A stretch of 46,861 bases of DNA. Origin: Acholeplasmataceae bacterium (lineage in GTDB: Bacteria; Bacillota_I; Bacilli_A; Acholeplasmatales; Acholeplasmataceae). The notes beneath the pieces were generated by a model. It worked only from the letters and a program-made list of their open reading frames with translations. It searched no databases and had not been told where the DNA came from. Location: contig JAQVBA010000002.1 in assembly GCA_028690555.1 (NCBI GenBank), forward strand, positions 1 to 46,861, read 5' to 3'. Shown here one piece after another: positions 5,778 through 46,861 of the stretch (position 1 is its first letter; every line of letters starts with the position of its first letter). The position numbers and the translations under genes are program-made.

Positions 5778-5779
5778 AG

Positions 5780-9036: not shown

Positions 9037-9104
9037 TATTCAGATGACACAAAGATGCTACCCTAAAAAAATGCGCTTAAATGAGTGCATTTTTCCTTAT
9101 ATTA

Positions 9105-9113: not shown

Positions 9114-9137
9114 ATAAATGAAGGAATGGTGTATCTT

Positions 9138-9353: not shown

Positions 9354-12271
<2,918 letters not shown>

Positions 12272-12285
12272 GAAAGGAGAAAAAC

Positions 12286-14889: not shown

Positions 14890-14921
14890 TCTACCTTTTC
14901 TAAAAAATTAATTATAGATTA

Positions 14922-14962
14922 AAAAAGGCACGTGATGGATGAATCAAACGATGCCTTTTTTA
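14922..14962 (+). terminator. Probable terminator after gyrA
   Basis: AAAAAGGCA(cg) ... (cg)aTGCCTTTTT, with a large loop, followed by a T-run. The stem is imperfect. Confidence 0.5.
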
Positions 14963-15031
14963 TTCGCTTTATGTGCATAATTAGTTTTCTTAATGTATAA
15001 TGAATGTAGATAAAAATAAGAAGGATGAAGT

Positions 15032-17149: not shown

Positions 17150-17789
17150 TTGGAAAAATAAATCTTTATATATTGTCTCAGCCAGCTATGTTTTTATAGC
17201 GATTACATTAGGCTTTATATTAAATAATGGTCTCGTCATTTTTTTAGGTTGGAATATGATTTTAGCAACCATACCTTTATTATTAACACACTTTTATACA
17301 TATCAAAAAAGCAAGTTCCTTAGATTAGGAATTGCTTTTTTATACATCCTATTTTTTCCAAATTCAATCTATATTATGACGGATTTTATTCATTTTCAGG
17401 AGTACACATATTTTCTAGATTACCCCAATATTTATGCATATTTAATTGAAGATTGGATCATTTTTGTTCACGTGGTAATTGGCGCCTTGATAAGCAGTAA
17501 AATTGGAATGAGATCACTCGATATTCTTTCTAATGAATTAACAAATATACATCCACATGTGAAAAATTTATTGATCCATGCCTTATTTTTACTTTCAAGT
17601 ATCGCAATTTTTATTGGTCGATTTATTCGGTTTAATTCATGGCAATTTTATAAAATCAATTTGATGATTGAAGATATTTTATCGCATTTTCAATTTTTTA
17701 TTTTCTTTGTTTTATTAATGTTCATCTTGCATTGGGTCATATACTTTGTTTTTCACGAAAAAAAAGAGCCAATGGCTCACATAAAGTAA
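17118..17789 (+). CDS. Polytopic membrane protein, DUF1361-like
   Basis: 223 aa with ~6 TM helices. The motifs GWNMILATIPLLL, FFPNSIYIMTDFIHF and IGRFIRFNSWQ resemble DUF1361 hallmarks as I remember them. The start at 17118 (GGGAGA RBS at 17101-17106) overlaps the upstream gene by 32 nt. An alternative ATG lies at 17124. Confidence 0.5.
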   Translation: MFMKRLENINNWKNKSLYIVSASYVFIAITLGFILNNGLVIFLGWNMILATIPLLLTHFYTYQKSKFLRLGIAFLYILFFPNSIYIMTDFIHFQEYTYFLDYPNIYAYLIEDWIIFVHVVIGALISSKIGMRSLDILSNELTNIHPHVKNLLIHALFLLSSIAIFIGRFIRFNSWQFYKINLMIEDILSHFQFFIFFVLLMFILHWVIYFVFHEKKEPMAHIK

Positions 17790-18586
17790 ATAACGATCGA
17801 TAGTATGCCAATGACAAGGCAGTAGGCCCCAAAGTATATCAAGTTTTTAACTTTGATAAATCTAAAAATCCACATGACAGATAGCAAACTAAAGAGAAAA
17901 CTCATCATGAACGCTAATATATAACCTAAGACGTTAATGGATTCAGTTACATTCACCGCATCATAAATACCTAAAATAGAAACCGGAACAGATACGACAA
18001 GGTAACTTAGAAATGAGAAACGTAAAACTTTTTTAAGTTCTAACTTTTGAACTAAACCACCTGTCATGGTGATTCCACTTCTAGATATACCTGGAAGAAC
18101 TGCAAACATTTGAAATGCACCAATAATTAATGCATTACGATAAGAAATATCTTTTTTCCATTGAATATCTTTAGAACGATAAACGAATAAAAGTAATAAA
18201 CCGGTGATGATTAACGAAAATCCGATGGATAATAAATCGTTTGGTAAATAATCTTTAAAAAAGAATCCAAAAATACCAATCGGTATAACAGCGATTAATA
18301 ACTTTAAAACATATTGAAAATCTTCTTTTCTTGCTTCATCTTTTTTGATAATAAATTTCCATGTACCGCTAATGAGTTGACCGACATCTCTTCTAAAATA
18401 AAAGAGTAAAGCTAAAAATGATCCCATATTCGTAATCATCAGAAAGACAGTCAAATTCGTTAAGTCGATTTGAAATAAACGACTAAATAAAGTTAAATGT
18501 CCACTTGAAGAAATGGGAAGGATCTCTGTAATCCCTTGGATGATTCCAAGAACTATATATTTTAAGATTTCGTAAAAGTTTTCCAT
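17777..18586 (-). CDS. uppP: Undecaprenyl-diphosphate phosphatase (BacA/UppP)
   Basis: 269 aa and polytopic. GIIQGITEILPISSSGHL near the N-terminus and PGISRSGITMTGG in the second half are the two UppP signature motifs. Confidence 0.92.
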   Translation of the reverse strand: MENFYEILKYIVLGIIQGITEILPISSSGHLTLFSRLFQIDLTNLTVFLMITNMGSFLALLFYFRRDVGQLISGTWKFIIKKDEARKEDFQYVLKLLIAVIPIGIFGFFFKDYLPNDLLSIGFSLIITGLLLLFVYRSKDIQWKKDISYRNALIIGAFQMFAVLPGISRSGITMTGGLVQKLELKKVLRFSFLSYLVVSVPVSILGIYDAVNVTESINVLGYILAFMMSFLFSLLSVMWIFRFIKVKNLIYFGAYCLVIGILSIVIYFM

Positions 18587-18686
18587 CGTTTTATCACCTT
18601 CTTTATTATAGCATAGAAAATCAATATAAAATATGCTAAAATATAGTCAATCTTATCTAATAAAACAGCACAATTAAGGAGATAAT

Positions 18687-19559
18687 ATGAATCACCTTAT
18701 TAAAATAATTAAAGGCAGTTTAGTAGGAATGGGAAGCATTCTTCCAGGAGTTAGTGGCTCGATGATTGCTGCTATTTTTAATATCTATCAATCGCTTGTG
18801 AATGCGTTAAATGATTTTACTAAACACCCGATTAAAGCGATTAAATCTGTATGGCAATACATTGCGGGTGTAATCATCGGACTATTTTTAGGTTTTTTTG
18901 TCATTAATTTATTTTTAGATATCGCGCCACTCCCCATTACTTTATTATTTATTGGATTTATTTTGGGCGCGATACCAAGTATGATTAAAAAAGTTAGAAA
19001 TACACAGTTTAAGTGGCACCATATACTTGTTTTATTAATTTCAATGGTATCGATGATATCGATGGTTTTTATTCAAGAGAATAATGGATCAGGTGAGCAA
19101 GAATATCTCATCGTCTTTCTTATCGGTGCGATCACAGCAATTGCATTAATTATCCCTGGTTTATCTGGAGCAACCATGCTTATGGCACTTGGGTTCTATC
19201 AAAAATTATTGGATTTAATTGATGATTTGCTCAAAGGATTAGCAATTTTCGATTTTTCTAGTGTTCTGAAACAATTACCGCTATTCTTATTACTTGTTCT
19301 TGGTGTTGTGGTTGGTTTGATACTCATGGGGAAAGTCATGTTTGTTTTACTTCAAAAATACCAAACACATTTTTATATGGCAGTTATTGGAATTGTTATC
19401 GTATCACCATTTAACATTTTATTCACACTTGAACAAAACACGAATGACCATGTTTTTCAAACAGATTGGTACTTTTGGGTTGTTGGTCTCATATTATGTG
19501 TGATTGGTTTTATGGCATCTAAATTATTATCAGTTGAACCAAAAAAATTGGAGGAATAA
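18687..19559 (+). CDS. DUF368-family membrane protein (family implicated in undecaprenyl-phosphate translocation)
   Basis: 290 aa and polytopic. It has the internally repeated motifs LPGVSGSMIAAIF (N-terminal half) and IPGLSGATMLMALGFY (C-terminal half), characteristic of DUF368. It is divergent from uppP across a 100-nt intergenic region. Confidence 0.7.
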   Translation: MNHLIKIIKGSLVGMGSILPGVSGSMIAAIFNIYQSLVNALNDFTKHPIKAIKSVWQYIAGVIIGLFLGFFVINLFLDIAPLPITLLFIGFILGAIPSMIKKVRNTQFKWHHILVLLISMVSMISMVFIQENNGSGEQEYLIVFLIGAITAIALIIPGLSGATMLMALGFYQKLLDLIDDLLKGLAIFDFSSVLKQLPLFLLLVLGVVVGLILMGKVMFVLLQKYQTHFYMAVIGIVIVSPFNILFTLEQNTNDHVFQTDWYFWVVGLILCVIGFMASKLLSVEPKKLEE

Positions 19560-19562
19560 AAC

Positions 19563-20429
19563 ATGATTCGTAAAGCAGTAATCCCTGCAGCGGGATATGG
19601 AACTAGATTTTTACCAATAACAAAGGCTCTACCTAAGGAATTACTTCCGATTATTGATCGGCCTACGATTGAGTTTATTGTGAATGAAGCGATTGAGAGC
19701 GGAATCACAGATATTTTACTCATTGTGAGTTCAAATAAAAATGCGATTATTGATTATTTCGATTATAATCTTGAACTTGAGCAAATTTTAACCAATAAAA
19801 ATAAACATGAAGATGTCAAAATGTTAAGATCCATCGGCAAAGGAGCTAATATTCATTTTATTCGTCAAAAAGAACAACTTGGCTTAGGCCATGCTGTCTT
19901 GCAAGCTGAAGCATTTGTAGGCGATGAACCCTTTGTTGTTTTATTAGGCGATGACATGTATATTGGTAAAGAAAAGCCAGCTATAAGACAATTAATGGAT
20001 GTTTTTAATGTTGTCAAATCTCCAGTCTTGGGAACTATGGAAGTTTCATATAAAGACACCTCAAAATATGGCATTTGCATCCCAAAAGAAAAAACGGACA
20101 AACCTTATATTGAATTAAAAGGTGTCGTTGAAAAACCAAAAATTGAAGAAGCCCCATCTCGTAGTGCAATTGCTGGAAGATATGTGTTAACACCAACTAT
20201 TTTTAAGTATTTAAAGAATCAAACAAGAGGTGCAGGCAACGAAATTCAATTGACAGATGCGATATTAAGACTTATGAGTGAAGAAAAAGTCTTTGCATGT
20301 GATCTAATTGGTAAGCGTTATGACGTGGGCAAAAAAATTGACTATATTGAAGCAATCCTCGATTTTGGGTTCAAATCTGATGAACTAAAAGATGAATTAA
20401 AAGAACTCATTGAAAAGAAATACAAATAA
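19563..20429 (+). CDS. galU: UTP--glucose-1-phosphate uridylyltransferase
   Basis: KAVIPAAGYGTRFLPITKALPKELLPI, LGLGHAV, VVEKPK. 288 aa. It starts 3 nt after the DUF368 gene. Confidence 0.92.
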   Translation: MIRKAVIPAAGYGTRFLPITKALPKELLPIIDRPTIEFIVNEAIESGITDILLIVSSNKNAIIDYFDYNLELEQILTNKNKHEDVKMLRSIGKGANIHFIRQKEQLGLGHAVLQAEAFVGDEPFVVLLGDDMYIGKEKPAIRQLMDVFNVVKSPVLGTMEVSYKDTSKYGICIPKEKTDKPYIELKGVVEKPKIEEAPSRSAIAGRYVLTPTIFKYLKNQTRGAGNEIQLTDAILRLMSEEKVFACDLIGKRYDVGKKIDYIEAILDFGFKSDELKDELKELIEKKYK

Positions 20430-20476
20430 TATCAGGGCTTCTTTACTTTCTCTTAAGGTTTCACTATAATAAAGAT

Positions 20477-20690
20477 AACACGTTAAAAAGAGCATAGTAA
20501 TTTGAAATATGCATGAAAAAGAGACATCACAAAAGGTGAAAGTGATGATGCATTTCAAATGAATCCACTCTTTAGTGGCGCTAATCACGTCCGTTATCCT
20601 GCGTTAAAGGAAATGAGGGCTAGGAATTCCTAGAACTAAGGTGGTACCGCGATGATTCGTCCTTAGATTTTTATCTAGGGACTTTTATTT
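20477..20690 (+). promoter_or_regulatory. T-box leader upstream of serS
   Basis: A TATAAT -10 lies at 20465-20470. Stem I elements are AGAGCATAGTAA and GGTGAAAG. The candidate specifier TCC-A lies at 20564-20566 (GAATCCACTC); it aligns with the AAC-ACTC of the asnS leader. The T-box motif AACTAAGGTGGTACCGCG is at ~20635-20652. The terminator is GTCCTTAGAT (20659-20668) paired with ATCTAGGGAC (20673-20682), followed by TTTTATTT. Confidence 0.88.
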
Positions 20691-20707: not shown

Positions 20708-21985
20708 ATGTTAGATTTAAAATGGTTAACTGAGAATATGGATGAAGCAATCCAAAGATTAGAAACACGTCAAGGTGATTTTTCATTTGTTCGGGAGCTT
20801 TCCACGCTTCAAAATGCTCGGAAAGATAAAATTGCTGAAGTTGAGAGGTTAAAAGCTTTTCGCAATGAGCAATCAAAAAAAATTGGTGAATTAAAAAGAC
20901 AAAAATTAGATGCATCAGAAGTTTTAAATGATGTTGCTCATATTGGTGATGAAATTAAAACGCTTGATGATGAACTTCAAGGAATTGAGACGAAAATTTT
21001 TGAAATTTTATCAATTATTCCTAATCTTCCACATCAAAGTGTGCCTATTGGCAAGGATGAAAATGATAATCAAGTCATCCGTGTCGTTGGCAAGCCAAAA
21101 GAATTTAATTTTAAAGTAAAAGATCATGTTGAACTTGGTGAAAAATTAAATATTTTAGATTTTGAACGTGCAGCGAAAATTACGGGCGCTAGATTTGTTG
21201 TTGATAAAGGATTAGGCGCACGTTTGGAAAGATCTTTAATTCAATTTATGATGGATTTACATGCCCATGAACATGGATATACGGAAATTATCCCTCCTTA
21301 TATCGTCAATGAAAAAAGTATGTATTCCACCGGGCAATTTCCTAAGTTTAAAGATGATGCTTTCCGTGTAGGCACAGATGAAAACAATTGGTATTTAAAT
21401 CCTACAGCTGAAGTACCGACGATCAATCTTTATCGTGATGAAATTATTGATGGTGATGCATTACCATTCCATTATTGTTCATATACCACAGCATTTAGAG
21501 CTGAAGCGGGATCAGCAGGTAGAGACACAAGGGGAATTTTGAGACAACATCAATTCAATAAAGTAGAATTGATTAAATTTACCAAACCCGAAACGTCATA
21601 TGATGAACTTGAAGCGATGCTGATTAATTCTGAAGAAGTCTTAAAACGATTAGAATTACCATATCGTGTGGTTTGTTTATCCACTGGAGATATGGGTTTT
21701 GGAATGGCTAAAACCTATGATATTGAAGTATGGTTACCCGGACAAAACACATATCGTGAAATTGGATCAATTTCAAATGCTGAAGACTTTCAAGCAAGAC
21801 GGGCAAATATTCGTTTTAAACGCTCAAAGGATAGCAAAACAGAGTACGTCCATACATTAAATGGTTCTGGGCTAGCGGTTGGAAGAACGATGATTGCGAT
21901 TATCGAAAATTATCAAAATGAAGATGGTTCAATTACAGTGCCAAAAGCATTAATTCCATACATGAAAGTTGAATGTATTAAATAA
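20708..21985 (+). CDS. serS: Serine--tRNA ligase
   Basis: 425 aa with an N-terminal coiled-coil arm. Class II motifs are [21 protein letters not shown] and [16 protein letters not shown]. An AGGAGG RBS is present. Confidence 0.95.
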
Positions 21986-35250: not shown

Positions 35251-36837
35251 ATGGAAAAAATAACAGTTTTATGCGAAAAAATGGGCGTCATTGGTGATGA
35301 ATGTATCCCTTATGGCTTTGATAAGGCTAAGATTGATCTATCTGTTTTAAAAAGATTAGAAAACAAGCCCAATGGGAAACTTATTTTAGTGACTGCGATT
35401 AATCCTACACCCGCTGGTGAAGGAAAAACAACCGTATCAATCGGACTCACTCAAGGACTTAAAGAAATTGGCAAACATCCTGTTTTAGCATTAAGAGAAC
35501 CAAGTTTAGGACCAGTTTTTGGTCTTAAAGGTGGAGCAACTGGTGGTGGAAAAGCCAGTGTTACTCCTTCGGATGATATTAATCTTCATTTTACAGGTGA
35601 TCTTCATGCGATAACAGCTGCAAATAACTTATTATCAGCATTGATTGACAATCATATATTTCAAGGAAACGAATTAGGTATTGAAACTGTCACTTGGAAG
35701 CGTTGCATGGATATGAACGATCGTAGTTTAAGAGACATTGACACACCGATAAGAAAAGATGGGTTTGTCATTACTGCAGCAAGTGAAATCATGGCTATTT
35801 TAGCCTTGGCTACTGATCTTAAAGATTTGAAAGCAAGAATTAATCGTATTCTTGTAGGATATACGAACGAAAATAAACCTGTTTACGTCAAAGATTTAGG
35901 TGGCGCAGATGCAATGACATTACTTTTAAAGAATGCGATTAATCCAAATCTAGTTCAAACAGTTGATGGTGTTCCAACATTTGTTCACGCTGGACCATTT
36001 GCTAACATCGCACATGGATGTAATTCGATTGTTGCAACTAAACTTGCTTTAAAACTTGGAGACTATGCTGTGACTGAAGCTGGATTTGGTGCAGATTTAG
36101 GTATGGAAAAATTTATTGATTTAAAAATGCCTTATCTTGATAAAAATGTGGATGCAATCGTCATTGTGGCAACTTTAAGAGCATTAAAATCCCATGGAGG
36201 TGCTGAAGATTTTTCAGCTGAAAACCATGAAGCGCTTCGTTTAGGAATTCCTCATTTAAATAAGCATATTGAAAACATTAAAGGTTTTGGCTTACCATAT
36301 GTTATTGCGTTAAATCATTTCTATACTGATACCGATGAAGAACTTAAGATATTGATGGATTGGGCGAAAGAAAACAATCATCCAATCGCTTTAGCTAAAG
36401 GATTTTCTGAAGGTGGCAAAGGTATGGTTGACTTAGCGAATATTGTAGTTGAAATTGCAAATCAAAAATCAACAATTAAACCAACGTATAGTGCAGAAGA
36501 TTTGCCACAAACCAAGATTGAGAAAATCGCAAAAAACTTGTATGGTGCTAAAGAAGTTGTATTTACTAAGAAAGCAAAAGAACAACTTGAACAATACGCA
36601 TCACTTGGATGGAATCTACCTGTATGTATGGCGAAAACGCCGCTTTCACTCACTGGAGATCCTAAAATAAAAGGTTTACCTACCGATTTTACATTAACGA
36701 TTCAAGAAATTAGACCCTCACTAGGTGCAGGCTTTTTAGTGGCTTTAACCAAAGGCATTATGGTTATGCCGGGTTTAAATAAAACACCACGTGCCATTTC
36801 AATGGTTTTGGACGATGAGGGAAATCTCATCGATTAA
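35251..36837 (+). CDS. fhs: Formate--tetrahydrofolate ligase
   Basis: LILVTAINPTPAGEGKTT plus family-typical blocks (GPVFGLKGGATGGG, PTFVHAGPFANIAHGCNS). At 528 aa it is somewhat shorter at the N-terminus than the ~555 aa I expect. Confidence 0.93.
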   Translation: MEKITVLCEKMGVIGDECIPYGFDKAKIDLSVLKRLENKPNGKLILVTAINPTPAGEGKTTVSIGLTQGLKEIGKHPVLALREPSLGPVFGLKGGATGGGKASVTPSDDINLHFTGDLHAITAANNLLSALIDNHIFQGNELGIETVTWKRCMDMNDRSLRDIDTPIRKDGFVITAASEIMAILALATDLKDLKARINRILVGYTNENKPVYVKDLGGADAMTLLLKNAINPNLVQTVDGVPTFVHAGPFANIAHGCNSIVATKLALKLGDYAVTEAGFGADLGMEKFIDLKMPYLDKNVDAIVIVATLRALKSHGGAEDFSAENHEALRLGIPHLNKHIENIKGFGLPYVIALNHFYTDTDEELKILMDWAKENNHPIALAKGFSEGGKGMVDLANIVVEIANQKSTIKPTYSAEDLPQTKIEKIAKNLYGAKEVVFTKKAKEQLEQYASLGWNLPVCMAKTPLSLTGDPKIKGLPTDFTLTIQEIRPSLGAGFLVALTKGIMVMPGLNKTPRAISMVLDDEGNLID

Positions 36838-36848
36838 GGAGGATAATC

Positions 36849-37694
36849 ATGATCCTATTAGATGGGAAGAATGTTGCAAAAGAACGGAATTTATTACTTA
36901 AACAAAAAATTGAAGAACATATAAAATCACAACGCGAACCACATCTTTCAATTATTTTGATTGGTGAAAATCCAGCGAGTATTTCGTATGTAACCGGTAA
37001 AGGAAAAGCATGCAAACTTGTTGGTATAAAACACACATTACATCATCTAAGTGATACCGTGACTGAAGATGAAGTGGCAGCACTCATCGAAACACTCAAT
37101 CAAGATGATTCAGTGGATGGAATCTTGTTACAACTACCAATACCTAAACATTTAAATGATTCAAAACTAATCGATCTGATCTCAAGAGATAAAGATGCTG
37201 ATGGTTTTCATGTGATTAATCAGGGATACCTTTATCAAAAAAAGCCAACGATTTATCCTGCAACCCCTAAAGGAATCATCTCTTTATTGGAACATTACAA
37301 CATTGAAATAGCTTCAAAACACGCAGTGATTGTTGGAAGAAGTAATATTGTAGGTTTTCCTGTAGCAAGATTACTCATGGACCGTGGAGCAACCATTACT
37401 GTATGTCATAGACAAACAAAAGATCTTTCATATCACACAAGACAAGCAGATATCATTATTGCATCTGCGGGAACTCCACTACTCATTAAGAAAGAAATGG
37501 TTAAAGAAGGAGCAATTGTCGTTGATGTTGGTGTAAACCGCTTAGAAGGAAAACTTGTAGGAGATGTATGTTTTGATGAAGTTTCGGAAGTTGCAAGTTA
37601 TCTTTCACCTGTGCCGGGTGGCGTTGGACCGATGACAATTAATGCATTACTTGAAAACACGTATGAGTTATATTTAAAGCATATAAATCGTTAA
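36849..37694 (+). CDS. folD: Bifunctional methylenetetrahydrofolate dehydrogenase/methenyl-THF cyclohydrolase
   Basis: ILVGENPASISYV, GILLQLPIP, VIVGRSNIVGFPVA, SPVPGGVGPMT. Confidence 0.95.
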   Translation: MILLDGKNVAKERNLLLKQKIEEHIKSQREPHLSIILIGENPASISYVTGKGKACKLVGIKHTLHHLSDTVTEDEVAALIETLNQDDSVDGILLQLPIPKHLNDSKLIDLISRDKDADGFHVINQGYLYQKKPTIYPATPKGIISLLEHYNIEIASKHAVIVGRSNIVGFPVARLLMDRGATITVCHRQTKDLSYHTRQADIIIASAGTPLLIKKEMVKEGAIVVDVGVNRLEGKLVGDVCFDEVSEVASYLSPVPGGVGPMTINALLENTYELYLKHINR

Positions 37695-37710
37695 TCTCAT
37701 TAAATCAATC

Positions 37711-37738
37711 AACACCCATTTTTTGGGTGTTTTTTTTA
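37711..37738 (+). terminator. Intrinsic terminator after folD
   Basis: ACACCC (37712-37717) pairs with GGGTGT (37725-37730). A run of 8 T follows. Confidence 0.85.
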
Positions 37739-37786
37739 ACATATAATGTTACAATAGAAATGTAAAAAAAGTAAGGGGCATATCCG

Positions 37787-38335
37787 ATGAATATTTGGCA
37801 TGATATTAGCAAATCTAGAATTAAACCAGAACGATTTGTAGCATGTATTGAAATCTCTAAAGGCAGTAAAAAAAAATATGAACTTGATAAAGAAACAGGC
37901 ATGATTATTCTTGATCGAATCTTGTTTACATCTACACATTATCCAGCAAATTATGGATTTATTCCAAGAACTTATGCTGGTGATAATGACCCACTAGATG
38001 TTTTGGTCTTATGTCAAGAAGATATTGAACCTTTATCAATTGTCGATTGTTATCCCATTGGGGTGATTAAAATGATTGATTCTGATGAAATCGATGAAAA
38101 GATTATTGCTGTACCTTTTGGTGATCCTTCGCTTACACAATATAAGGATATTGGTGAATTACCGCAGCATTTATTAACTGAAATGAGTCATTTTTTCGAA
38201 GTTTATAAATCGCTTGAAGGAAAAAAGACGTATATTTTAGATATTGAAGGCGTTGAAGAAGCGAAAAAGATTATAAATTCATGTATTGACACTTACGAAG
38301 AAAAATTTAAAGATAGAGCAAAGAAAGAGGAATAA
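37787..38335 (+). CDS. ppa: Inorganic pyrophosphatase, family I
   Basis: 182 aa with EISKGSKKKYELDKETG, YPANYGFIP and DNDPLDVLVL. Confidence 0.92.
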   Translation: MNIWHDISKSRIKPERFVACIEISKGSKKKYELDKETGMIILDRILFTSTHYPANYGFIPRTYAGDNDPLDVLVLCQEDIEPLSIVDCYPIGVIKMIDSDEIDEKIIAVPFGDPSLTQYKDIGELPQHLLTEMSHFFEVYKSLEGKKTYILDIEGVEEAKKIINSCIDTYEEKFKDRAKKEE

Positions 38336-38339
38336 TATT

Positions 38340-39065
38340 ATGGGAAGAGCATTTGAAGTACGAAAGGTAGCGATGCAAAAAACTGCTGCTGCTAAAGGTA
38401 AACTCTATGCGAAATACGGCAAAGAAATTTATATGGCCGCAAAATCTGGAACTCCTGATCCAGACACGAACCAAGCATTAAAACGCATCATTGAAAAGGC
38501 TAAGAAAGAACAAGTAACTGCGGATGTGATCAAGCGTGCGATTGATAAAGCTAAAGGCGGAAGCGATGAAAACTATGCAGAAGCGCGATATGAAGGCTTT
38601 GGTCCAGGGAATTCAATGATTATCGTTGAATGCCTAACAGATAATCCAAATCGTACGATTGCAGAAGTACGTAATTGTTTTACAAAAACAGGCGGTAAAC
38701 TAGGTGTTTCTGGTTCAGTGATGCATCAATTTAATCATTATGCGGTCTTGACAATGCCAGGATTAACAGAAGATGAAGTATTAGAAATATTAATCACAAA
38801 TGACCTAGATGCACAAGAGATTGAAACCGATGAAGAGGGTGTCACTGTATATTCTGATGCATCGAATTATAATAACATTCGTCAAGCAATTTTAGATGTA
38901 CATCCGGATTTCGATTTCCAAACAGAAGAAATTATGTGGTTACCAATTATGGAAACATCGTTTGATCATGAAGAAGACCAAGATAAATTTGATCGTTTGG
39001 TTGGTATGCTCGATGAACTTGATGATGTTCAAAACGTTTATCATAACGTGAGTTTCAAAGAATAG
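38340..39065 (+). CDS. yebC: YebC/PmpR-family DNA-binding transcriptional regulator
   Basis: MGRAFEVRKVAMQKTAAAKGKLYAKYGKEI ... YEGFGPG. I place the start at the ATG at 38340, after the ppa stop, with an AAGAAAGAGG RBS. The track start at 38286 lies inside ppa. Confidence 0.9.
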   Translation: MGRAFEVRKVAMQKTAAAKGKLYAKYGKEIYMAAKSGTPDPDTNQALKRIIEKAKKEQVTADVIKRAIDKAKGGSDENYAEARYEGFGPGNSMIIVECLTDNPNRTIAEVRNCFTKTGGKLGVSGSVMHQFNHYAVLTMPGLTEDEVLEILITNDLDAQEIETDEEGVTVYSDASNYNNIRQAILDVHPDFDFQTEEIMWLPIMETSFDHEEDQDKFDRLVGMLDELDDVQNVYHNVSFKE

Positions 39066-39110
39066 AAATTAAATTTTGAAGGTTACTTAAATTCTATGAA
39101 ATACTTAATA

Positions 39111-39150
39111 AAAGAAGCGTTTTCAGTGACTTGAATGCTTCTTTTATTTT
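39111..39150 (+). terminator. Intrinsic terminator after yebC
   Basis: AAAGAAGC (39111-39118) pairs with GCTTCTTT (39137-39144), with additional inner pairing. TATTTT follows. An extended -10 (TGcTATAAT, 39162-39170) lies downstream and would serve glyA. Confidence 0.7.
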
Positions 39151-39198
39151 GACTTTTATTATGCTATAATAAACTGAAGAATCATCGAGGAGGATAGA

Positions 39199-40446
39199 AT
39201 GAATCTACGATTGAAAGATGCCGAGATCGATAGTTTTATCCAAAAAGAACTAAATCGACAAGAAGAGCACATTGAATTGATTGCGTCTGAGAATTTTGTT
39301 TCACCCGCAGTTTTAGAAGCACAAGGATCAATTTTGACCAATAAATATGCTGAAGGATATCCGAAAAAAAGATATTATGGTGGTTGTGAGTTTGTGGATG
39401 AGATTGAAACACTTGCGATTGAACGATTAAAAAAATTGTTTGACGCTAAATATGCCAATGTACAACCACATTCTGGTTCACAAGCCAATATGGCAGTGTA
39501 TCAAGCATTATTAAATCCAGGTGATAAAATTTTAGGTATGTCACTTGCTGAAGGTGGACATTTGACACATGGATTTAGTTTAAATTTTTCTGGAAAATTT
39601 TATCAGTCTTATTTTTATGGTGTTGACCAAATAACAGAACAAATTGATTACGATAAATTGAGGGAACTTGCATTAGAAATTAAGCCCAAACTTATTATTG
39701 CTGGAGCGAGTGCATATTCTAGAATTATCGATTTTAAACGTTTTAGAGAAATTGCGGATGAGGTTGGGGCATATCTTCACGTAGATATGGCGCATATCGC
39801 TGGATTAGTTGCTGCTAAGCTTCACCCATCACCACTTCCATATGCGCATGTCGTATCATCAACGACACATAAGACTTTAAGAGGTCCTCGAGGAGGTATC
39901 ATCTTAACGAATGATGAAGTGGTAGCTAAGAAAATTGATAAAGCTGTATTTCCTGGTGTTCAAGGCGGTCCATTAATGCATGTGATTGCAGCTAAAGCTG
40001 TTGCGTTTAAAGAAGCTTTAACCGATGAATTTTTAGATTACCAAAAACAAGTTGTAAAAAATGCACAAGCATTTGCGGATGAAATGATGAAATTAGGTTA
40101 TCCGATTGTGAGTGGCGGAACTGACAATCATCTATTCTTAGTCAATGTGAAAAAGACATTAGGAATTACAGGATTAGATGCAGAAAATACGCTGCATCGC
40201 GTAAGTATTACATGCAATAAAAATGGTGTTCCTTTTGATACTGAAAAACCTGCATATGCAAGTGGTATTCGTTTAGGCACTCCCGCAGTTACAACAAGAG
40301 GATTTAAGGAAGATGATATGCGACTTGTTGCAAGTTTCATTGATCAAGCATTACGACATAAAGATAATCCAGAAATTATTGAAACCATTAGAAAAAAAGT
40401 CATCGAACTGACTAAAAAATATCCATTATACACGAAGGGAGTATAA
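39199..40446 (+). CDS. glyA: Serine hydroxymethyltransferase
   Basis: [24 protein letters not shown], and the PLP-lysine motif [14 protein letters not shown]. Confidence 0.96.
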
Positions 40447-40449: not shown

Positions 40450-41748
40450 ATGATAGCAAGAACAAAATATATTCCAGATGGTAAAAAACATCTTAAAGAA
40501 TTACCAATCTTGCATTACCTTGATGCAGAATATTTATATTATCCTGTGACAAGTGCGCGTTGTCCAGAAGGGGAAACGTGCGTTAGAGGTGGCCAATTTG
40601 TTAAAGTTGGAGAAGTTATCGGAACAAGAAAAGGTGCATTCTTCGAACAACCAATGCATGCCACAGTAAGTGGAGAAGTTGTGGGTTATGAAAATCACAT
40701 TGATCAAAGTGGTAAAGTTGTTAACTGTTTAATCGTTAAAAACGATAAAAAGTATGAACTTCATGAATCCATTGTGGATCGTACCGATGAAGAAATTGAC
40801 GCTTTAACAAAACAAGAGTATGTTGAAATTGTTAAAGAAGCTGGATTAGTAGGACTTGGAGGAAGTGCATTCCCAAGTTATATTAAACTCGATTCAAAAG
40901 ATCCAATTGATGTTGTCATCGCAAACGGTGTTGAATGTGAGCCTAATCTAATCAGTGATTATGGTCTCATGATGACCAGTCCTGAGATGGTGATTCGCGG
41001 ATTAATTTATGCGATGAAAGCTTCAGGAGCTAAACGCGGTGTGATTGCCATTAAGAAGAAATATGTTGAACTTTATGAACGCTTGAGTTTCAAGCTTAAA
41101 GAATTCCCAAATGAAAATATCGAAGTGATTAACGTTGGCAATTATTATCCACAAGGATGGGAACTTGCAATGATTAAAGAAGCCTTAAAGATTAAAATTC
41201 CTCAAGGCAAATTACTTTCAAAATATGGCGTTTTAAACTTTAACGTTTCAACTTTAGCAAGTATTTATATGGCTGTTAAAAAGAGACTTCCAGTTTTAGA
41301 AAGATTCATCACATTTAGTGGTGATGGCATTCATAATAAAACGTTTAGAGCACGTATTGGTACATTAATGACCAATCTTATTGAACTTGCTGGTGGTTAT
41401 ATCGATGAAGAAAAACCTAAAGTACTCATATTAGGTGGACCGATGATGGGAACGAACATTAATCGTGATGATATCGTGATGACGCATACGACAACAAGTT
41501 TGATTGTTATGAATGAAGAAATCGTGAAAGAAGAACCATGTGTACACTGTGCTTCATGTGTGTATTCTTGCCCGGTTCAAATTCAGCCAGTTCAAATTAT
41601 GAACGCTTATAAAGTTCGTGATAAAGATGCGTTAAAGATGCTTGAGGTTAGTAAGTGTATTGAATGTGGATTGTGCTCCTATGTATGTCCATCGAAGATT
41701 CACTTAACCGAATATATGCGTTCTGGTAAACGCTTTGCTAGTAAATAG
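40450..41748 (+). CDS. rnfC: Rnf complex subunit C (NADH/FMN-binding, 2x[4Fe-4S])
   Basis: 432 aa. It has an RnfC N-terminal barrel region, GLVGLGGSAFPSYIK (51-kDa-like nucleotide/FMN site), and two ferredoxin motifs CVHCASCVYSCP and CIECGLCSYVCP. It starts 3 nt after the glyA stop, with its RBS (AAGGGAG) inside glyA. Confidence 0.9.
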   Translation: MIARTKYIPDGKKHLKELPILHYLDAEYLYYPVTSARCPEGETCVRGGQFVKVGEVIGTRKGAFFEQPMHATVSGEVVGYENHIDQSGKVVNCLIVKNDKKYELHESIVDRTDEEIDALTKQEYVEIVKEAGLVGLGGSAFPSYIKLDSKDPIDVVIANGVECEPNLISDYGLMMTSPEMVIRGLIYAMKASGAKRGVIAIKKKYVELYERLSFKLKEFPNENIEVINVGNYYPQGWELAMIKEALKIKIPQGKLLSKYGVLNFNVSTLASIYMAVKKRLPVLERFITFSGDGIHNKTFRARIGTLMTNLIELAGGYIDEEKPKVLILGGPMMGTNINRDDIVMTHTTTSLIVMNEEIVKEEPCVHCASCVYSCPVQIQPVQIMNAYKVRDKDALKMLEVSKCIECGLCSYVCPSKIHLTEYMRSGKRFASK

Positions 41749-41759
41749 GAGGAAATGAT

Positions 41760-42836
41760 ATGCAAACAGTAAAACAAACAAGTCCTTATATTCGTAAAGC
41801 CGTTTCGACCAAACGAATGATGACGGATGTATTAATTGCATTATTACCTGTCACCGCTTTTGCGATTTATCGCTTTGGATTTGATGCGATTATAAGAATT
41901 ATCGTATCACTTGTTGTGATGATAGGTTTAGAAGCTTTAGCATTTGGCATGATGCATAAGCCAAAAAAAGATGGAACTAAAATCGAAAAAATCAAATCAA
42001 GATATGCAGAGTTTTCAATAAACAATGTGATTACTCCTGCAATTAGTGGTTTGATTTTTGCAATGATTATTCCATCTAAATTACCAATTTATGCTGTGAT
42101 TGTTGGTGCAGCTTTCGGTATTATCGTTGGGAAAATGTTATTTGGCGGATTAGGATCAAATATCTTCAATCCTGCTGCAGTTGGCCGTATATTTATTACA
42201 TTGGCTTTAACTCCGATGTTTACAGGAACTTATGTTGGTGTTGATTTAGTTGCAGGCAGTACAGCACTTTCAACTTTGCGCAGTGGTTTAGGATTCCCTG
42301 GTGTTTTAAATAGTTATCCATTGATGGACATGTTTATGGGCTTCACACCTGGTGCCATGGGGGAAATTAGTGCTCTAGCAATTTTAATTGGTGGCGTATA
42401 CTTATTAATTCGTCGATCAGCAGATTATAGAGTCGTACTCTCTGCGTTTTTAACATTCATAGTTTTAATTGGTTTAGCCGGTTTGAGATTATATCCTGAT
42501 CAAATCTTATCTTACACATTAATGCATTTATTATCTGGCGGTTTAATGTTTGGATTCATCTTCATGATTACTGACCCAGTGACATCACCAGTAACTCGTC
42601 CAGGACGATTTGCATATGGTGCGTTAGTTGCCGTATTGGTTGTACTCATTCGTTTATTTGGATCTTATCCAGAAGGTGTTGCATTTGCAATATTATTTAT
42701 GAACATGTTTGTTCCATTGATTGACTATCCAAAATGGTCAACCAATAAAGTGAAACCTGTATTTATCGCAAGTTACGTCGTGGGCTTAATTGTCTTTGGC
42801 CTCGTCGTATTCTTTGGTGTAGGAGGTAGTGTATAA
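41760..42836 (+). CDS. rnfD: Rnf complex subunit D (polytopic, NqrB-like)
   Basis: 358 aa with ~9-10 TM helices. Motifs are NIFNPAAVGR and TDPVTSP. A candidate flavinylation-type segment DLVAGST lies at codons 162-168 (nt 42243-42263). Confidence 0.9.
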   Translation: MQTVKQTSPYIRKAVSTKRMMTDVLIALLPVTAFAIYRFGFDAIIRIIVSLVVMIGLEALAFGMMHKPKKDGTKIEKIKSRYAEFSINNVITPAISGLIFAMIIPSKLPIYAVIVGAAFGIIVGKMLFGGLGSNIFNPAAVGRIFITLALTPMFTGTYVGVDLVAGSTALSTLRSGLGFPGVLNSYPLMDMFMGFTPGAMGEISALAILIGGVYLLIRRSADYRVVLSAFLTFIVLIGLAGLRLYPDQILSYTLMHLLSGGLMFGFIFMITDPVTSPVTRPGRFAYGALVAVLVVLIRLFGSYPEGVAFAILFMNMFVPLIDYPKWSTNKVKPVFIASYVVGLIVFGLVVFFGVGGSV

Positions 42837-43801
42837 TGAAAGAATTTTTCAAAAAACCTCTGGTTCATTACACAACAGTTTTAACAATCGTCGCGATCAT
42901 CTGTGGTCTATTAATCGGTGGAGTTAATGCAATTACTGCACCAGTGATTAAACAAAATGAAATAGATGCTCAAAACAAGTCTTACCAAGAAGTATTGCCT
43001 GCTGGAGAAACATTTGAAGTGATTGAACTTGATAATGCACCAGCATCAATTACGACTGCAGTTAAAGGTTTAGATAGTTCTAATCAAGTGGTTGGCTACA
43101 TTTATATCGCATCTGGTACAAATAAACATGGATCGATGACAATCGCGATTAGTATTGATGCACAAGGTAAAGTTTTAGGTGCACAATTTGTGAGCATTCA
43201 ACAAACTTTAAATGTTGAAGGAACTCGTTTTAATCTTTCACTATTTGTGGGAACTCAAATTAGCGCACTTGCTCCGGATGGTGATTTAGTCAGTGGTGTA
43301 ACAAACAGTTTGAATACTGTTAGAGCGTTATTAACTGATGTCGCAACAGTCCATGCAGAAGTTGCAGATGTCCCACTTGATCCTTACACTGTCATGTTCG
43401 GTGAAGGATTCACTAAGGAAGTTGATAGTTCATTTGTAGCAACCGAATATGTTAAATCAAAAGAACTTGTTAAAGACTCAAATGGAACCGATATTGCTTT
43501 CCTATACAAGTTAAATGGATTTGGCATTTATAATAGTGAATCTACTGAAGAAAAAGATATAACACTTTATGTTGGTGTTGATAATGATGGTAAAATTTTA
43601 GGTATTGTTGTACCTGCTGATGAATATCATCATACAGGTGGTGGGTTATATACAAACACAGTAACATTCCTTGAAATTTATGCAAACACCATGTTAAGTG
43701 ATGTTGAAACTACAGGTGCTGACTTAACTTCAGGAGCAACTAATTCCAAGAATTTGGCAAATCAACTTATGGCAGCATTGAAGGAGGTTGTTCTCGGATG
43801 A
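42836..43801 (+). CDS. rnfG: RnfG-like subunit, paralogue 1: TM anchor plus two tandem FMN-binding-type modules
   Basis: 321 aa, against ~180-210 aa for usual RnfG. It has an N-terminal anchor (TVLTIVAIICGLLIGGV) and VLP. Module 1 ends in DLVSGVT (nt 43283-43303). Module 2 has HHTGGG and ends in the canonical DLTSGAT (nt 43721-43741). There is a TAATG overlap with rnfD. Confidence 0.8.
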   Translation: MKEFFKKPLVHYTTVLTIVAIICGLLIGGVNAITAPVIKQNEIDAQNKSYQEVLPAGETFEVIELDNAPASITTAVKGLDSSNQVVGYIYIASGTNKHGSMTIAISIDAQGKVLGAQFVSIQQTLNVEGTRFNLSLFVGTQISALAPDGDLVSGVTNSLNTVRALLTDVATVHAEVADVPLDPYTVMFGEGFTKEVDSSFVATEYVKSKELVKDSNGTDIAFLYKLNGFGIYNSESTEEKDITLYVGVDNDGKILGIVVPADEYHHTGGGLYTNTVTFLEIYANTMLSDVETTGADLTSGATNSKNLANQLMAALKEVVLG

Positions 43802-44778
43802 AAAAAGAAAATTTATGGTTATTAATTAATACTGGAATTATGCTTGTTATTGGTATCGTTTTAGTTATTGTGGCAAATACCGTAATTCCAAAAGAACCTA
43901 AAGATCGTCTCTTCAATCAAGTGATTCAACTTGAAAACCAAGAAACAGTTGAAGGCGTTCCAGCAGGTAGTAGTTATGCAACTATTGATTACAAAGCTGA
44001 CGCTGTATCGAGATCCGGTGATGTTTTAGGAACTGTTTATAATGTAAAGGTTAGAAATGGTTACAAACTCTCAGCTGATGATACAAGTGGATATATTGAA
44101 TTACTTATTGCCATCGACGAAAATGATTTAGTCTTTGTTGAAATTGTGGTTCTTAATCAATCAAACTGGACCGTTAAAGGCATTCAAAACTATATCGTTG
44201 AATATTATGATGGTGTTCTACTTGAACAAATCGAAAAATTCCCAGCATACGATGCTGCTGATTTAGAAGCAGGAGCAACCGCTGTGGATAGTACAGGAAC
44301 AATTAAGAATCTGATTATTAGAACTTTAAAAGTACATTTTAATATTCAAGATGATCCATATATTGATTATTTCGGTGAAGGTTACACATTAGAAGATGAT
44401 GCTACATTTATTCCGACAGAACATGTCATCTACAAGCAAAATGTGAAAGATTCATCTGGTAATGATGCGGGAACAATCTATGAATTAGAAGGTACTGGAG
44501 AATATTTAGGATATGATGGCATTTCATCTGGATCCATCACAATGTATGTTTTATTTGATGAAAATGCAGAAATCATTTCAATTCTTATGCCAGATTCACT
44601 CTATGGGCATACTGCAGGATTTAAAGCAAGAAATGATGCGTACTTAAATGAATTTATCGGATTAACTATTTTAGAAATTCAAGCAGTTATCGATGAAAAT
44701 GTTGATTTGAAAACTGGTGCGACAGGATCTAGAGCACTTATTGATATATTGCTAGCTGCACTAAGTGAGGTGAACTAA
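43798..44778 (+). CDS. rnfG: RnfG-like subunit, paralogue 2: TM anchor plus two tandem FMN-binding-type modules
   Basis: 326 aa with the anchor LLINTGIMLVIGIVLVIVA. Module 1 ends in DLEAGAT (nt 44260-44280). Module 2 (GHTAGF) ends in DLKTGAT (nt 44704-44724). It is clearly paralogous to the preceding gene; compare DPYTVMFGEGFTKE with DPYIDYFGEGYTLE. There is an ATGA overlap with paralogue 1. Confidence 0.8.
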   Translation: MKKENLWLLINTGIMLVIGIVLVIVANTVIPKEPKDRLFNQVIQLENQETVEGVPAGSSYATIDYKADAVSRSGDVLGTVYNVKVRNGYKLSADDTSGYIELLIAIDENDLVFVEIVVLNQSNWTVKGIQNYIVEYYDGVLLEQIEKFPAYDAADLEAGATAVDSTGTIKNLIIRTLKVHFNIQDDPYIDYFGEGYTLEDDATFIPTEHVIYKQNVKDSSGNDAGTIYELEGTGEYLGYDGISSGSITMYVLFDENAEIISILMPDSLYGHTAGFKARNDAYLNEFIGLTILEIQAVIDENVDLKTGATGSRALIDILLAALSEVN

Positions 44779-44779
44779 C

Positions 44780-45469
44780 ATGACTGATGCTAAAAAAGTT
44801 CCAGCTAAAAAAACAGCTGAAAAAAATGAAGATTCTCTTTTAAATATTTTCACCAAAGGTATTTGGAAAGAAAATGGCATTTTCGTGATGGTTCTTGGTA
44901 TGTGTCCTGCGCTTGCGGTGACATCGACATTTGAAGGTGCATTTGGAATGGGAATTCTTGTGTTCTTAGTGCTCACCATGACTAACATATCCGTCTCAGC
45001 TATTAGAAAACTAGTGCCAAACACAGTGAGAATTCCTGTATACATTATTATTATTGCAACTGAAGTAACCGTTATTAAGATGTTGGTTGATGCATTTGCA
45101 CCTGCACTTGCTGCTGAACTTGGTGTATTCATTGCTTTAATTACAGTGAACTGTGTTGTCTTCGGGCGTGCAGAATCATTCGCTTCTAAAAATACAGTCA
45201 TTAAATCAGCACTTGATGGTATGGGAGTTGCTGTTGGATTTGCGTTAGCCTTAGTCATCATTGGATTCTTTAGAGAATTCTTTGGAACTGGCATGATTCA
45301 ATTAGGGAAAATATTACCTCTTGGTTTTGAATATGCTGTATTAGGAAATGCGGGATTAGACAAATATGCATTCTCTGTACTCGTTCAACCTCCAGGAGCA
45401 TTCTTAGTAATTGGATTTATCTTAGCAGTAATTGTAGCTATAAGACAAGCAAAGGGGGCTAAGAAATAA
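44780..45469 (+). CDS. rnfE: Rnf complex subunit E (NqrD-like)
   Basis: 229 aa and polytopic. Conserved Cys contexts are VLGMCPALAVT and ITVNCVVFGRAE. Confidence 0.9.
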   Translation: MTDAKKVPAKKTAEKNEDSLLNIFTKGIWKENGIFVMVLGMCPALAVTSTFEGAFGMGILVFLVLTMTNISVSAIRKLVPNTVRIPVYIIIIATEVTVIKMLVDAFAPALAAELGVFIALITVNCVVFGRAESFASKNTVIKSALDGMGVAVGFALALVIIGFFREFFGTGMIQLGKILPLGFEYAVLGNAGLDKYAFSVLVQPPGAFLVIGFILAVIVAIRQAKGAKK

Positions 45470-46041
45470 TGAACTTAATTGCAATTTTAATTTCCGCGAT
45501 GATTGTTAATAACATCGTGTTGATGCAGTTCTTAGGCCTTTGTTCATTCTTTGGTGTTTCCACTAAGATGAAATCTGTTGTGGGTATGGGGGCAGCGGTT
45601 ATCGTCGTTATTTTCCTATCTGCAGCCATTACATTTCCACTCTATAAATTTGTATTAATTCCATTAAAAATTGAATACATTGATACAATCGCATTTATTC
45701 TAGTTATCGCATCACTCGTTCAGTTGACTGAATTAGTGATTAAGCGTTTTTCCCAAAGTTTATATAAAGCACTTGGGGTTTATCTTCCATTAATCGCGAC
45801 CAACTGTGCCGTACTTGGTGTTGCTTTAACAAACATCACTATTGATCAAACATATGTTGAGGCTTTATTTAATGCACTTGGCGGCGGAATGGGTTATGCA
45901 TTCATTATCATCACTTTCACAGCCATTCGCATGCGTTTAGATTCAGCAAGTGTTCCTAAAGCACTAAAGGGTATGCCTATTGCGCTAGTAACTGCTGGGC
46001 TTATGGCGTTAGCATTTATGGGATTGGCAGGTATCATCTAA
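45469..46041 (+). CDS. rnfA: Rnf complex subunit A (NqrE-like)
   Basis: 190 aa and polytopic. Conserved Cys contexts are FLGLCSFFGVS and LIATNCAVLGVAL. There is a TAATG overlap with rnfE. Confidence 0.9.
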   Translation: MNLIAILISAMIVNNIVLMQFLGLCSFFGVSTKMKSVVGMGAAVIVVIFLSAAITFPLYKFVLIPLKIEYIDTIAFILVIASLVQLTELVIKRFSQSLYKALGVYLPLIATNCAVLGVALTNITIDQTYVEALFNALGGGMGYAFIIITFTAIRMRLDSASVPKALKGMPIALVTAGLMALAFMGLAGII

Positions 46042-46253
46042 TGTGGACAAGTTATTTAATTTTAATTGGAATCATTTCAGGATTCATTGGTCTCTATATG
46101 CTTACGATGCATTTAAATAAAAAAATAGCCGTTCCAGAAAGTTGTAAAGCAGCCTATTTAGAAGCCCAATCTTGCGAATCTTGTGCTTCTCGAGGCGGAG
46201 GCTGTGGTTTTAGTGACGCCATTGAATTTATGAAGGAGGTAAAACCAGAATGA
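46041..46253 (+). CDS. Small single-TM Cys-rich protein (NqrM-like architecture) embedded in the rnf operon
   Basis: 70 aa. One TM helix (YLILIGIISGFIGLYMLTM) and a basic patch are followed by C35-x9-C45-x2-C48-x6-C55 (ESCKAAYLEAQSCESCASRGGGCGF). The start overlaps the rnfA stop (TAATG) and the stop overlaps the rnfB start (ATGA). That coupling argues it is a real, co-translated gene. Confidence 0.6.
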   Translation: MWTSYLILIGIISGFIGLYMLTMHLNKKIAVPESCKAAYLEAQSCESCASRGGGCGFSDAIEFMKEVKPE

Positions 46254-46567
46254 CATTACTCTATCCTTTCATCGTCCTTGGTGGACTAGGTATCATTCTT
46301 GGAGTTGTTTTATCATTAGCTAATCAATATCTAACAGTAAAAGAAGATCCGAGAATTGATGACATTGAAAAATTATTACCTAATTATAATTGTGGCGCAT
46401 GTGGAACTCCGGGTTGCCGTGCATTTGCAACAGGTATTGTTGAAGGTGAAGTCAAAAATTTATCAAGATGTAAACCAGGTAAAGTAGATAAACATTATAA
46501 TCCTATTTTAGAGTATTTAAAGGACCATCCAAATCCGGATGGATCACATATTGATGTGAAGATTTAG
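46250..46567 (+). CDS. rnfB: Minimal RnfB: TM helix plus N-terminal RnfB-type Fe-S domain only (no ferredoxin-type domains)
   Basis: 105 aa with the TM helix LYPFIVLGGLGIILGVVLSL. LPNYNCGACGTPGCRAFATGIVEGEVKNLSRCKPG gives C-x2-C-x4-C-x17-C, the RnfB N-terminal cluster motif. The protein has only these four Cys and no CxxCxxCxxxCP motif. A strong AAGGAGG RBS is present, and a hairpin plus T-run follows the stop. Confidence 0.8.
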   Translation: MTLLYPFIVLGGLGIILGVVLSLANQYLTVKEDPRIDDIEKLLPNYNCGACGTPGCRAFATGIVEGEVKNLSRCKPGKVDKHYNPILEYLKDHPNPDGSHIDVKI

Positions 46568-46589
46568 GACATTCATTGTCCTTTTCTTT
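46566..46589 (+). terminator. Probable terminator at the end of the rnf operon
   Basis: AGGACA (46566-46571), loop TTCAT, TGTCCT (46577-46582), then TTTCTTT. The stem is short, at 6 bp. Confidence 0.5.
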
Positions 46590-46625
46590 ACAAATTTTAA
46601 GTTTATAAATGAAAAAGAGGTTTTT

Positions 46626-46861
46626 ATGAAAAAATTTATATTTATACCTATATTAATCTTTATGTCTTTTATATTAATCGCATGTCAAGAAAAGGTCACA
46701 CCTATCAAAGTGACTTTTAGCGATTATATGTATACGTTCATATCGATTGATATTAAGCAAGCACCACAAGACATGGAAGAAGAAATAAAAGAAAACCTCG
46801 AACAAATTTTTCGTATGTATCATGAATTAGCGACTAATGAGGACCCTCTTCCTGAAGATTC
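46626..46861 (+). CDS. Lipoprotein, possible ApbE-family FAD:protein FMN transferase (5' part; continues beyond the window end)
   Basis: Absent from the track because it runs off the window. AAAAAGAGG lies upstream of the ATG at 46626. The product reads MKKFIFIPILIFMSFILIAC|QEKVTPIKVTFSDYMYTFISIDIKQ...IFRMYHELATNE. The lipobox LIAC is clear. The segment after the lipobox resembles the start of ApbE domains (an F.DT.I.I block followed by a helix). That match and the location after the rnf genes are the only support for the ApbE call. Confidence 0.4.
   Translation, partial: MKKFIFIPILIFMSFILIACQEKVTPIKVTFSDYMYTFISIDIKQAPQDMEEEIKENLEQIFRMYHELATNEDPLPED

Follow-up and report, generated by a model that had tools for sequence, protein, structure and literature searches.

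The closest described relatives of the locus reported here are the clostridial-type Rnf complexes, encoded by rnfCDGEAB in Acetobacterium woodii and Clostridium tetanomorphum (structure 7zc6). According to a 2025 review, RnfB's C-terminal domain, with two to seven [4Fe-4S] clusters, is the ferredoxin acceptor in all characterised complexes, and a small RnfB domain shuttles electrons to the [2Fe-2S] centre of RnfA/E (PMC12174285). For multi-flavinylated RnfG proteins, a side pathway to outside acceptors has already been proposed (Meheust et al. 2021, eLife, PMC8238504). We examined a stretch of 46,861 nt (46.9 kb, hereafter the window) from an Acholeplasmataceae bacterium (assembly GCA_028690555.1, contig JAQVBA010000002.1, positions 1-46,861), in which nine consecutive plus-strand open reading frames (ORFs) fill positions 40450-46861: rnfC, rnfD, two tandem rnfG paralogues (G1 and G2, the latter also written G'), rnfE, rnfA, a 70-aa ORF that we call X or X70, a minimal rnfB, and the start of apbE. 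This is the gene order given in a preliminary description of the locus, and every gene was recovered at the position reported there. With slightly more confidence than doubt, we read the operon from its sequence as an Acholeplasmataceae form of Rnf that would still work as a ferredoxin- and NAD+-linked ion pump, with a minimal two-piece input (RnfB plus X) and an outer flavin side branch. We favour this reading because the core is complete, because RnfA, RnfE, RnfB and X are under strong constraint, and because the cultured relative Peloplasma aerotolerans encodes pyruvate:ferredoxin oxidoreductase (PFOR) and Fe-Fe hydrogenases (PMC11122141).

The catalytic core of the complex is complete: RnfC, RnfD, RnfE and RnfA with four [2Fe-2S] cysteines, and a canonical RnfG module. 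RnfC (40450-41748, 432 aa) has an NADH/flavin mononucleotide (FMN)-binding domain and two CxxCxxCxxxCP motifs for [4Fe-4S] clusters, scores 313 bits with TIGR01945 (cut-off 246), and also matches PF01512 and Fer4 families. RnfD (41760-42836, 358 aa; 234 bits with TIGR01946, cut-off 207) carries the flavin-attachment motif DLVAGST at T168 (nt 42243-42263). RnfE (44780-45469, 229 aa) and RnfA (45469-46041, 190 aa) likewise pass their curated models, the former at 218 bits with TIGR01948 (cut-off 213) and the latter at 229.8 bits with TIGR01943 (cut-off 229.3); the only two cysteines of each protein, C42 and C125 in RnfE and C25 and C113 in RnfA, are the expected [2Fe-2S] ligands. The locus thus shares with clostridial-type Rnf its gene order, above-cut-off C, D, E and A subunits, a canonical RnfG module, the four RnfA/E cysteines, the small RnfB [4Fe-4S] domain and the ApbE-type flavinylation motifs. 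It differs in lacking the C-terminal multi-cluster domain of RnfB (PMC12174285), and it has in addition a 70-aa membrane protein with four cysteines and a further G paralogue; its outer FMN modules number four, against one in the clostridial type. From rnfD to rnfB the genes follow one another at -1 (D/G1), -4 (G1/G2), +1 (G2/E), -1 (E/A), -1 (A/X) and -4 nt (X/B), which agrees with the translational coupling described earlier.

The RnfB encoded here (46250-46567, 105 aa) consists of a helix, one PF04060 [4Fe-4S] domain with cysteines C48, C51, C56 and C74, and a 30-aa tail. Its only matches are to PF04060 and to positions 9-79 of the 190-position rnfB model; with TIGR01944 it scores 62.5 bits, under the cut-off of 68.7, and a library profile scan found no Fer4 family in it. 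The protein is therefore cut down as first described, to its helix and first Fe-S domain; the ferredoxin-type multi-cluster domain is absent, and judged by sequence this RnfB is a retained shuttle domain alone. Among 65 distinct sequences, many positions of the tail, CKPGKxDKHfNPILEyLKdHPNpDGs..dvKi, show at least 90% conservation. No second RnfB or ferredoxin is encoded in the window, where CxxCxxCxxxC motifs in real genes are confined to RnfC. Directly 3' of rnfB, a consensus scan (the only basis for this feature) places a terminator-like hairpin and T-run on the plus strand (46566-46592). It is followed by the 5' part of apbE (46626-46861, plus strand, running off the end of the window), which encodes an FAD:protein FMN transferase lipoprotein with the lipobox LIAC. 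The part encoded here is 79-81% identical to the N-terminus of the full-length ApbE (PF02424) of orthologous loci, and apbE lies directly 3' in all of those that are complete.

We compared the operon with 91 fetched loci, among which 62 are Acholeplasmataceae-type loci with both rnfA and rnfB. All 62 contain X and a short RnfB, which is 105-106 aa long in 57 of them; where it is longer, the ORF caller has wrongly chosen an upstream start. In Bacteroidota outgroups RnfB is 288 aa long and X is absent. The best genome match, an Acholeplasmataceae metagenome-assembled genome (MAG), encodes an RnfA that is 98% identical, and the conserved gene order reads fhs-folD-ppa-yebC-glyA-rnfCDGG'EA-X-rnfB-apbE-NusG_II-Gx transporter. 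The locus is not a product of chance, since the same genes recur in these 62 loci with pN/pS of 0.01-0.15. RnfA, RnfE, RnfB and X, at 0.01-0.13, are among the most constrained genes of the operon and are under strong purifying selection.

In the related loci X and the short RnfB are constant, and the module number of the G proteins varies. Two modules in each of G and G' (2+2) is the layout of 29 loci, 2+1 that of 14 and 1+2 that of three, while two loci have 2+3, one has 3+3, and four have a single RnfG of ordinary length (1+0). These layouts are interleaved on the core-subunit tree and vary among close relatives, with a constant RnfB side. Locus L006 (6616-9401), which is closely related to locus L001 and comes from the same metagenome, has three modules in both G (462 aa) and G' (466 aa), giving six outer flavin sites. 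In the more distant locus L090 (GCA_964552625.1), where X has only a CxxC, the C-terminal FMN module of G barely differs from that of G' (3852-7529), which suggests recent gene conversion or module transfer. At an Erysipelotrichales locus (L068), with a single 172-aa G and a 94-aa RnfB, the interval between rnfA and rnfB is occupied by a 52-aa ORF with one helix, a CxxCxxxxC motif and TAATG overlaps, the positional equivalent of X. X and the short RnfB also occur with a single ordinary G; the pair therefore predates the G expansion and is more constant than it. The preliminary description had treated the trimmed RnfB and the expanded flavins as one design; because the G layout varies while X and the short RnfB are fixed, in the four single-G loci as elsewhere, we regard RnfB trimming and flavin expansion as separate, uncoupled evolutionary events.

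In one further locus, L091 (positions 1-8234 of Logan SRR33677551, GC 25.5%), rnfC is missing and rnfD (380 aa) comes directly after glyA. Its G has multiple modules and is 684 aa long, and its G' has 191 aa; RnfE is extended at the N-terminus by a Lys-rich stretch of 170 aa, RnfA is present, and X and RnfB have 64 and 107 aa. Some of the flavinylation motifs look degenerate. The NAD(H) port may have been lost from this Rnf.

Protein X (46041-46253, 70 aa) overlaps rnfA at a TAATG and rnfB at an ATGA, and our data bear out its earlier description as a single-helix, four-cysteine protein wedged between these two genes. In its predicted layout, a membrane helix spanning residues 2-28 is followed by a basic stop-transfer stretch, then by a short helix, a cysteine loop and a C-terminal helix; Cys35, 45, 48 and 55 lie in the loop, PESC-x9-CxxC-x6-C, which is predicted to be cytoplasmic. 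Its pN/pS of 0.01-0.03 is the lowest of the operon, below that of RnfA, and the constraint spans its whole length, including the C-terminal helix and residues other than cysteine; the four cysteines are conserved within the Acholeplasmataceae. Its presence in all 62 loci at this level of constraint led us to reject the idea that X is a fragment of RnfB or an annotation artefact. Relatives of X70 are few, 41 among 1.84 billion representative proteins, and nearly all are 49-81 aa long. One distant family member (P0073, 65 aa; L089, 7001-7198), from a Bacillota MAG, does not lie beside rnf genes; it is flanked by genes for phosphoglucomutase and uracil-DNA glycosylase, near ECF transporter components, and the wider small-protein family is thus not confined to Rnf operons.

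We propose that low-potential electrons from ferredoxin or flavodoxin would enter straight at the single RnfB cluster. X would be a stoichiometric, permanent accessory subunit at the cytoplasmic face, and its four-cysteine metal or Fe-S site, together with the RnfB tail, would stand in for the lost ferredoxin-like docking domain. The main alternative to a permanent subunit, and only slightly less probable, is a role like that of NqrM (DUF539), the maturation factor of Na+-NQR. As a tentative proposal, X would be an assembly factor whose cysteines deliver iron or a nascent cluster for the [2Fe-2S] centre of RnfA/E, perhaps also for the RnfB cluster, and it would be absent from the mature complex. 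X and NqrM are alike in build, both being small, with one helix and four conserved cytoplasmic cysteines, and both are encoded in the operon of a homologous pump near apbE; the likeness is one of build only. The conservation of the four cysteines within the Acholeplasmataceae fits such a role, as do sub-threshold matches of distant X members and of the Erysipelotrichales equivalent (E 1e-4 to 2e-3) to PF12669, the FeoB-associated Cys-rich membrane proteins, a family linked to iron handling. Membership of that family is not indicated: distant X members reach 15-23 bits (E 1e-4 to 0.03) against a threshold of 27 bits, and X70 of the window has no match at all. No sequence similarity to NqrM is detectable either, as 28 members of the X family gave no match to PF04400/DUF539 at E up to 1, a search in which HMMER filters may hide very weak matches. 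X also differs from NqrM in belonging to an Rnf rather than an Nqr operon and in lying between two structural genes, translationally coupled on both sides, instead of at the operon end. The extreme constraint along the whole of X fits a permanent interface better than a transient helper, and other Rnf complexes assemble without such a factor.

The other unusual part of the operon lies on its extracytoplasmic side. G1 (42836-43801, 321 aa) has an N-terminal anchor helix, a canonical RnfG-type module and an added C-terminal FMN module, and G2 (43798-44778, 326 aa) has an anchor helix and two FMN-type modules. The two proteins are 32% identical along their full length (E 4e-28), and the motif D-L-x-[STA]-G-[AV]-T occurs twice in each: DLVSGVT at T156 (nt 43283-43303) and DLTSGAT at T302 (nt 43721-43741) in G1, DLEAGAT at T161 (nt 44260-44280) and DLKTGAT at T309 (nt 44704-44724) in G2. 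Library models recognise in G1 an rnfG match over residues 15-124, below cut-off, and FMN_bind over residues 241-306. Orthologues were split into modules and their profiles compared with hhalign. The N-module of G1 was thereby linked to canonical single-module RnfG (probability 97.4%, E 9e-12), to the C-modules (99.1%, E about 1e-18) and to the N-module of G2 (96.8%, E 3e-10), and the latter to the C-modules (96.9%, E 2e-10); among all modules the probability was 96.7-99.1%. On the strength of these links we consider all four to be RnfG/FMN_bind-type modules, so that the earlier description of two tandem RnfG paralogues with two such modules apiece stands. The N-module of G1 itself has the make-up of RnfG, a helix-anchored FMN-binding domain with an SGVT motif, and flavinylation at its T156 is a prediction only. 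An AlphaFold model of G2 (pLDDT 79.8) has two beta-rich modules, each closed by a helix, and its low-confidence loops coincide exactly with both motifs. Exact-sequence look-up of G2 in databases returned no record, and homologues were used instead; they are few (35 clusters), come from the Acholeplasmataceae and include Peloplasma aerotolerans.

In nearly every one of about 55 distinct orthologues, all four sites retain the G-[AV]-[TS] acceptor, and pN/pS is 0.12-0.15 for G1 and G2. With two motifs per G protein, homologous modules, conservation of the motif and an adjacent ApbE, the pair belongs to the multi-flavinylated RnfG class (PMC8238504). The gene clusters of that study likewise contain an extracytosolic G with more than one FMN-binding domain, [S/T]GA[S/T]-like motifs and a neighbouring ApbE, and the idea of a second pathway was put forward there; the locus described here differs from them in its two tandem helix-anchored paralogues, in a total that ranges from one to six modules among close relatives, in a host without a cell wall, and in an expansion that sits on a complex with a minimal RnfB and X. 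From RnfB, electrons would pass to the [2Fe-2S] centre of RnfA/E, the FMN of RnfG, RnfD, RnfC and finally NAD+, and the route would be reversible. RnfD and each of the four G/G' modules would be flavinylated by the downstream ApbE lipoprotein on the outer face, which in these wall-less cells would be the surface of the cell. A side branch is the most likely role of the three extra flavins: starting at the RnfG flavin, it would lead to O2, flavins, Fe(III) or other external acceptors. Such an outer-face flavin path, already put forward in the preliminary description, fits both the published proposal and the conservation of the motif in every extra module. Because module number differs among relatives, the length of the branch would be an adjustable accessory. 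A multi-flavin protein has been measured at about -184 mV and is oxidised by O2 (PMC10339131), values with which the side branch is compatible.

It had been suggested in addition that the complex is no longer a ferredoxin:NAD+ oxidoreductase. In the strongest form of this idea, ferredoxin coupling was given up and the complex is an NADH-driven electron exporter, running from RnfC through RnfD and the RnfG flavin to the outer flavins, with RnfA, RnfE and RnfB vestigial or regulatory. The missing RnfB domain is the one described as the ferredoxin acceptor (PMC12174285), the four flavinylatable outer modules are conserved, and a related two-subunit Nqr/Rnf-like system has been proposed to run one-way from NAD(P)H to outer flavins (PMC8238504). 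However, RnfA, RnfE, RnfB and X are among the most constrained of the operon (pN/pS 0.01-0.13), every [2Fe-2S] and [4Fe-4S] ligand is retained, the short RnfB is also found with a single ordinary RnfG, so that trimming and expansion are not linked, and the PFOR and hydrogenases of the cultured relative need a ferredoxin sink. We therefore find loss of ferredoxin coupling unsupported and consider an NADH exporter improbable.

We give equally little credence to the view that the extra FMN modules are a local redox buffer or oxygen scavenger shielding the flavins of RnfG and RnfD, which are exposed where wall and periplasm are lacking, or that G' is a redundant paralogue outside the complex. The number of modules varies widely, with occasional losses, as might be expected of a dispensable accessory; O2 reactivity is on record for a characterised multi-flavin protein (PMC10339131), the cultured relative is itself aerotolerant, and no acceptor reductase is encoded nearby. 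Against this, the acceptor motif is conserved in each module under purifying selection, G' is translationally coupled inside the operon, and the near identity of the C-modules of G and G' in L090 suggests selection on both copies. The likeness to PplA, the surface-exposed protein of flavin-based extracellular electron transfer in Listeria that had been offered as a comparable case, holds as an analogy only: in both, two FMN modules are flavinylated by ApbE (as predicted for G and G'), but PplA is a lipoprotein that receives its electrons by way of Ndh2, quinone and EetA/B, whereas G and G' would be fed by the Rnf core. Membership of that system was rejected, as Ndh2, EetA/EetB and DmkA/B are absent from the window and from the 10-kb flanks of orthologous loci, and the G proteins have anchor helices and no lipoboxes.

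Several points weigh against the reading of the operon as a ferredoxin-linked Rnf with a two-piece input and a flavin branch. A second, full-length RnfB may be encoded elsewhere in the genome, beyond the 46.9-kb window, and X and the short RnfB co-occur within a single clade, so that common descent, and not a functional link, may account for their association. X70 has no significant Pfam or NCBIfam family and no detectable homologue of known function; its AlphaFold model has a low-confidence cysteine loop and no Foldseek match. In the distant relatives L090 and L068, X has only two or three cysteines, which argues against a fixed four-ligand cluster. On the outer face, G1 falls under the curated rnfG cut-off (TIGR01947, 45.6 versus 102 bits), and G2 matches no library model in the Pfam/NCBIfam-type profile scan; the expectation that the extra modules would register as FMN_bind domains thus held for the C-module of G1 and failed for G2, with hhalign linking all four. 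The best PDB match of the G2 model is RnfG of C. tetanomorphum (7zc6_G), at a weak Foldseek E of 0.019, and profile searches of PDB sequences with the N-module of G2 and with the C-modules returned nothing relevant, so that module homology rests on the local hhalign comparisons. Finally, no gene for an external acceptor protein lies nearby.

The operon lies about 34 kb from the chromosomal origin, on the leading strand. The origin region takes up positions 1-15000 of the window, where the GC skew changes sign near 6 kb and rnpA, yidC and jag on the minus strand (3394-5777) face dnaA, dnaN, recF, gyrB and gyrA on the plus strand (6342-14889). Between rmuC and jag, a 313-aa ORF (2364-3305, minus strand) has no Pfam match at E up to 1e-5. 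An envelope-type gene cluster follows at 15032-20429, in what is presumed to be a wall-less Mollicute; it encodes a large membrane protein with a sulfatase domain (resembling lipoteichoic acid synthase), a DUF1361 protein, a BacA undecaprenyl-diphosphatase, an undecaprenyl-phosphate translocase-like protein and a nucleotidyl transferase. A T-box leader (20474-20667, plus strand; 104 bits, above the gathering score) stands directly upstream of serS (20708-21985).

The one-carbon genes fhs, folD and glyA, with ppa and yebC, always stand immediately upstream of rnfC (35251-40446 in the window; also in L001, L003, L006-L008, L068 and L090), and in the window the gap between the glyA stop and the rnfC start is 3 nt. 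This arrangement suggests that genes of folate and serine metabolism are co-transcribed with a redox pump. On the other side, apbE is always followed by genes for a NusG_II-domain protein and an ECF-like 'Gx transporter' (PF07456), which in L001 (12825-14906) lie just past the point at which the window ends. Together they may supply or export flavin for flavinylation on the outer face.

Multi-flavinylated RnfG and its side pathway have thus already been published, while X and an RnfB without ferredoxin domain are apparently undescribed. Our literature search returned nothing specific on duplicated rnfG or truncated RnfB, and we found no description of X or of an RnfB that lacks the ferredoxin domain. 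The accessible part of the supplement of Meheust et al. (PMC8238504) contains no Acholeplasma entry. In the species paper on Peloplasma, the rnf genes are listed as MDI6452236-38, 40-41 and 43 and the operon is called rnfCDGEAB (PMC11122141). Exactly two accessions are passed over in that list, MDI6452239 (G') and MDI6452242 (X), each annotated as a hypothetical protein; the RnfB is annotated as an (Fe-S)-binding protein.

Current structural models of Rnf place ferredoxin docking on RnfB's multi-cluster C-terminal domain, and here a whole clade has an Rnf under strong constraint without that domain. The constant pairing of the short RnfB with a tiny four-cysteine membrane protein offers a natural minimal system for studying electron entry and the building of the [2Fe-2S] centre. 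The varying outer flavin modules, which sit on a cell surface without wall or periplasm, form a natural series in which the proposed diversion of electrons to outside acceptors by multi-flavinylated RnfG can be tested. It is possible, although at present we hold this only tentatively, that the Acholeplasmataceae/Erysipelotrichales lineage has rebuilt the electron entry of Rnf, either with a 50-76-aa X that has its own Fe-S or metal centre and, with a one-cluster RnfB, makes up a minimal port for ferredoxin, or with X as the first NqrM-type assembly factor of an Rnf. With two to six surface flavins added, the result would be a three-port machine at a wall-less membrane, connecting ferredoxin, NAD(H) and extracellular acceptors. 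Since the cultured Peloplasma aerotolerans M4Ah carries the same operon, these questions can be put to the test.

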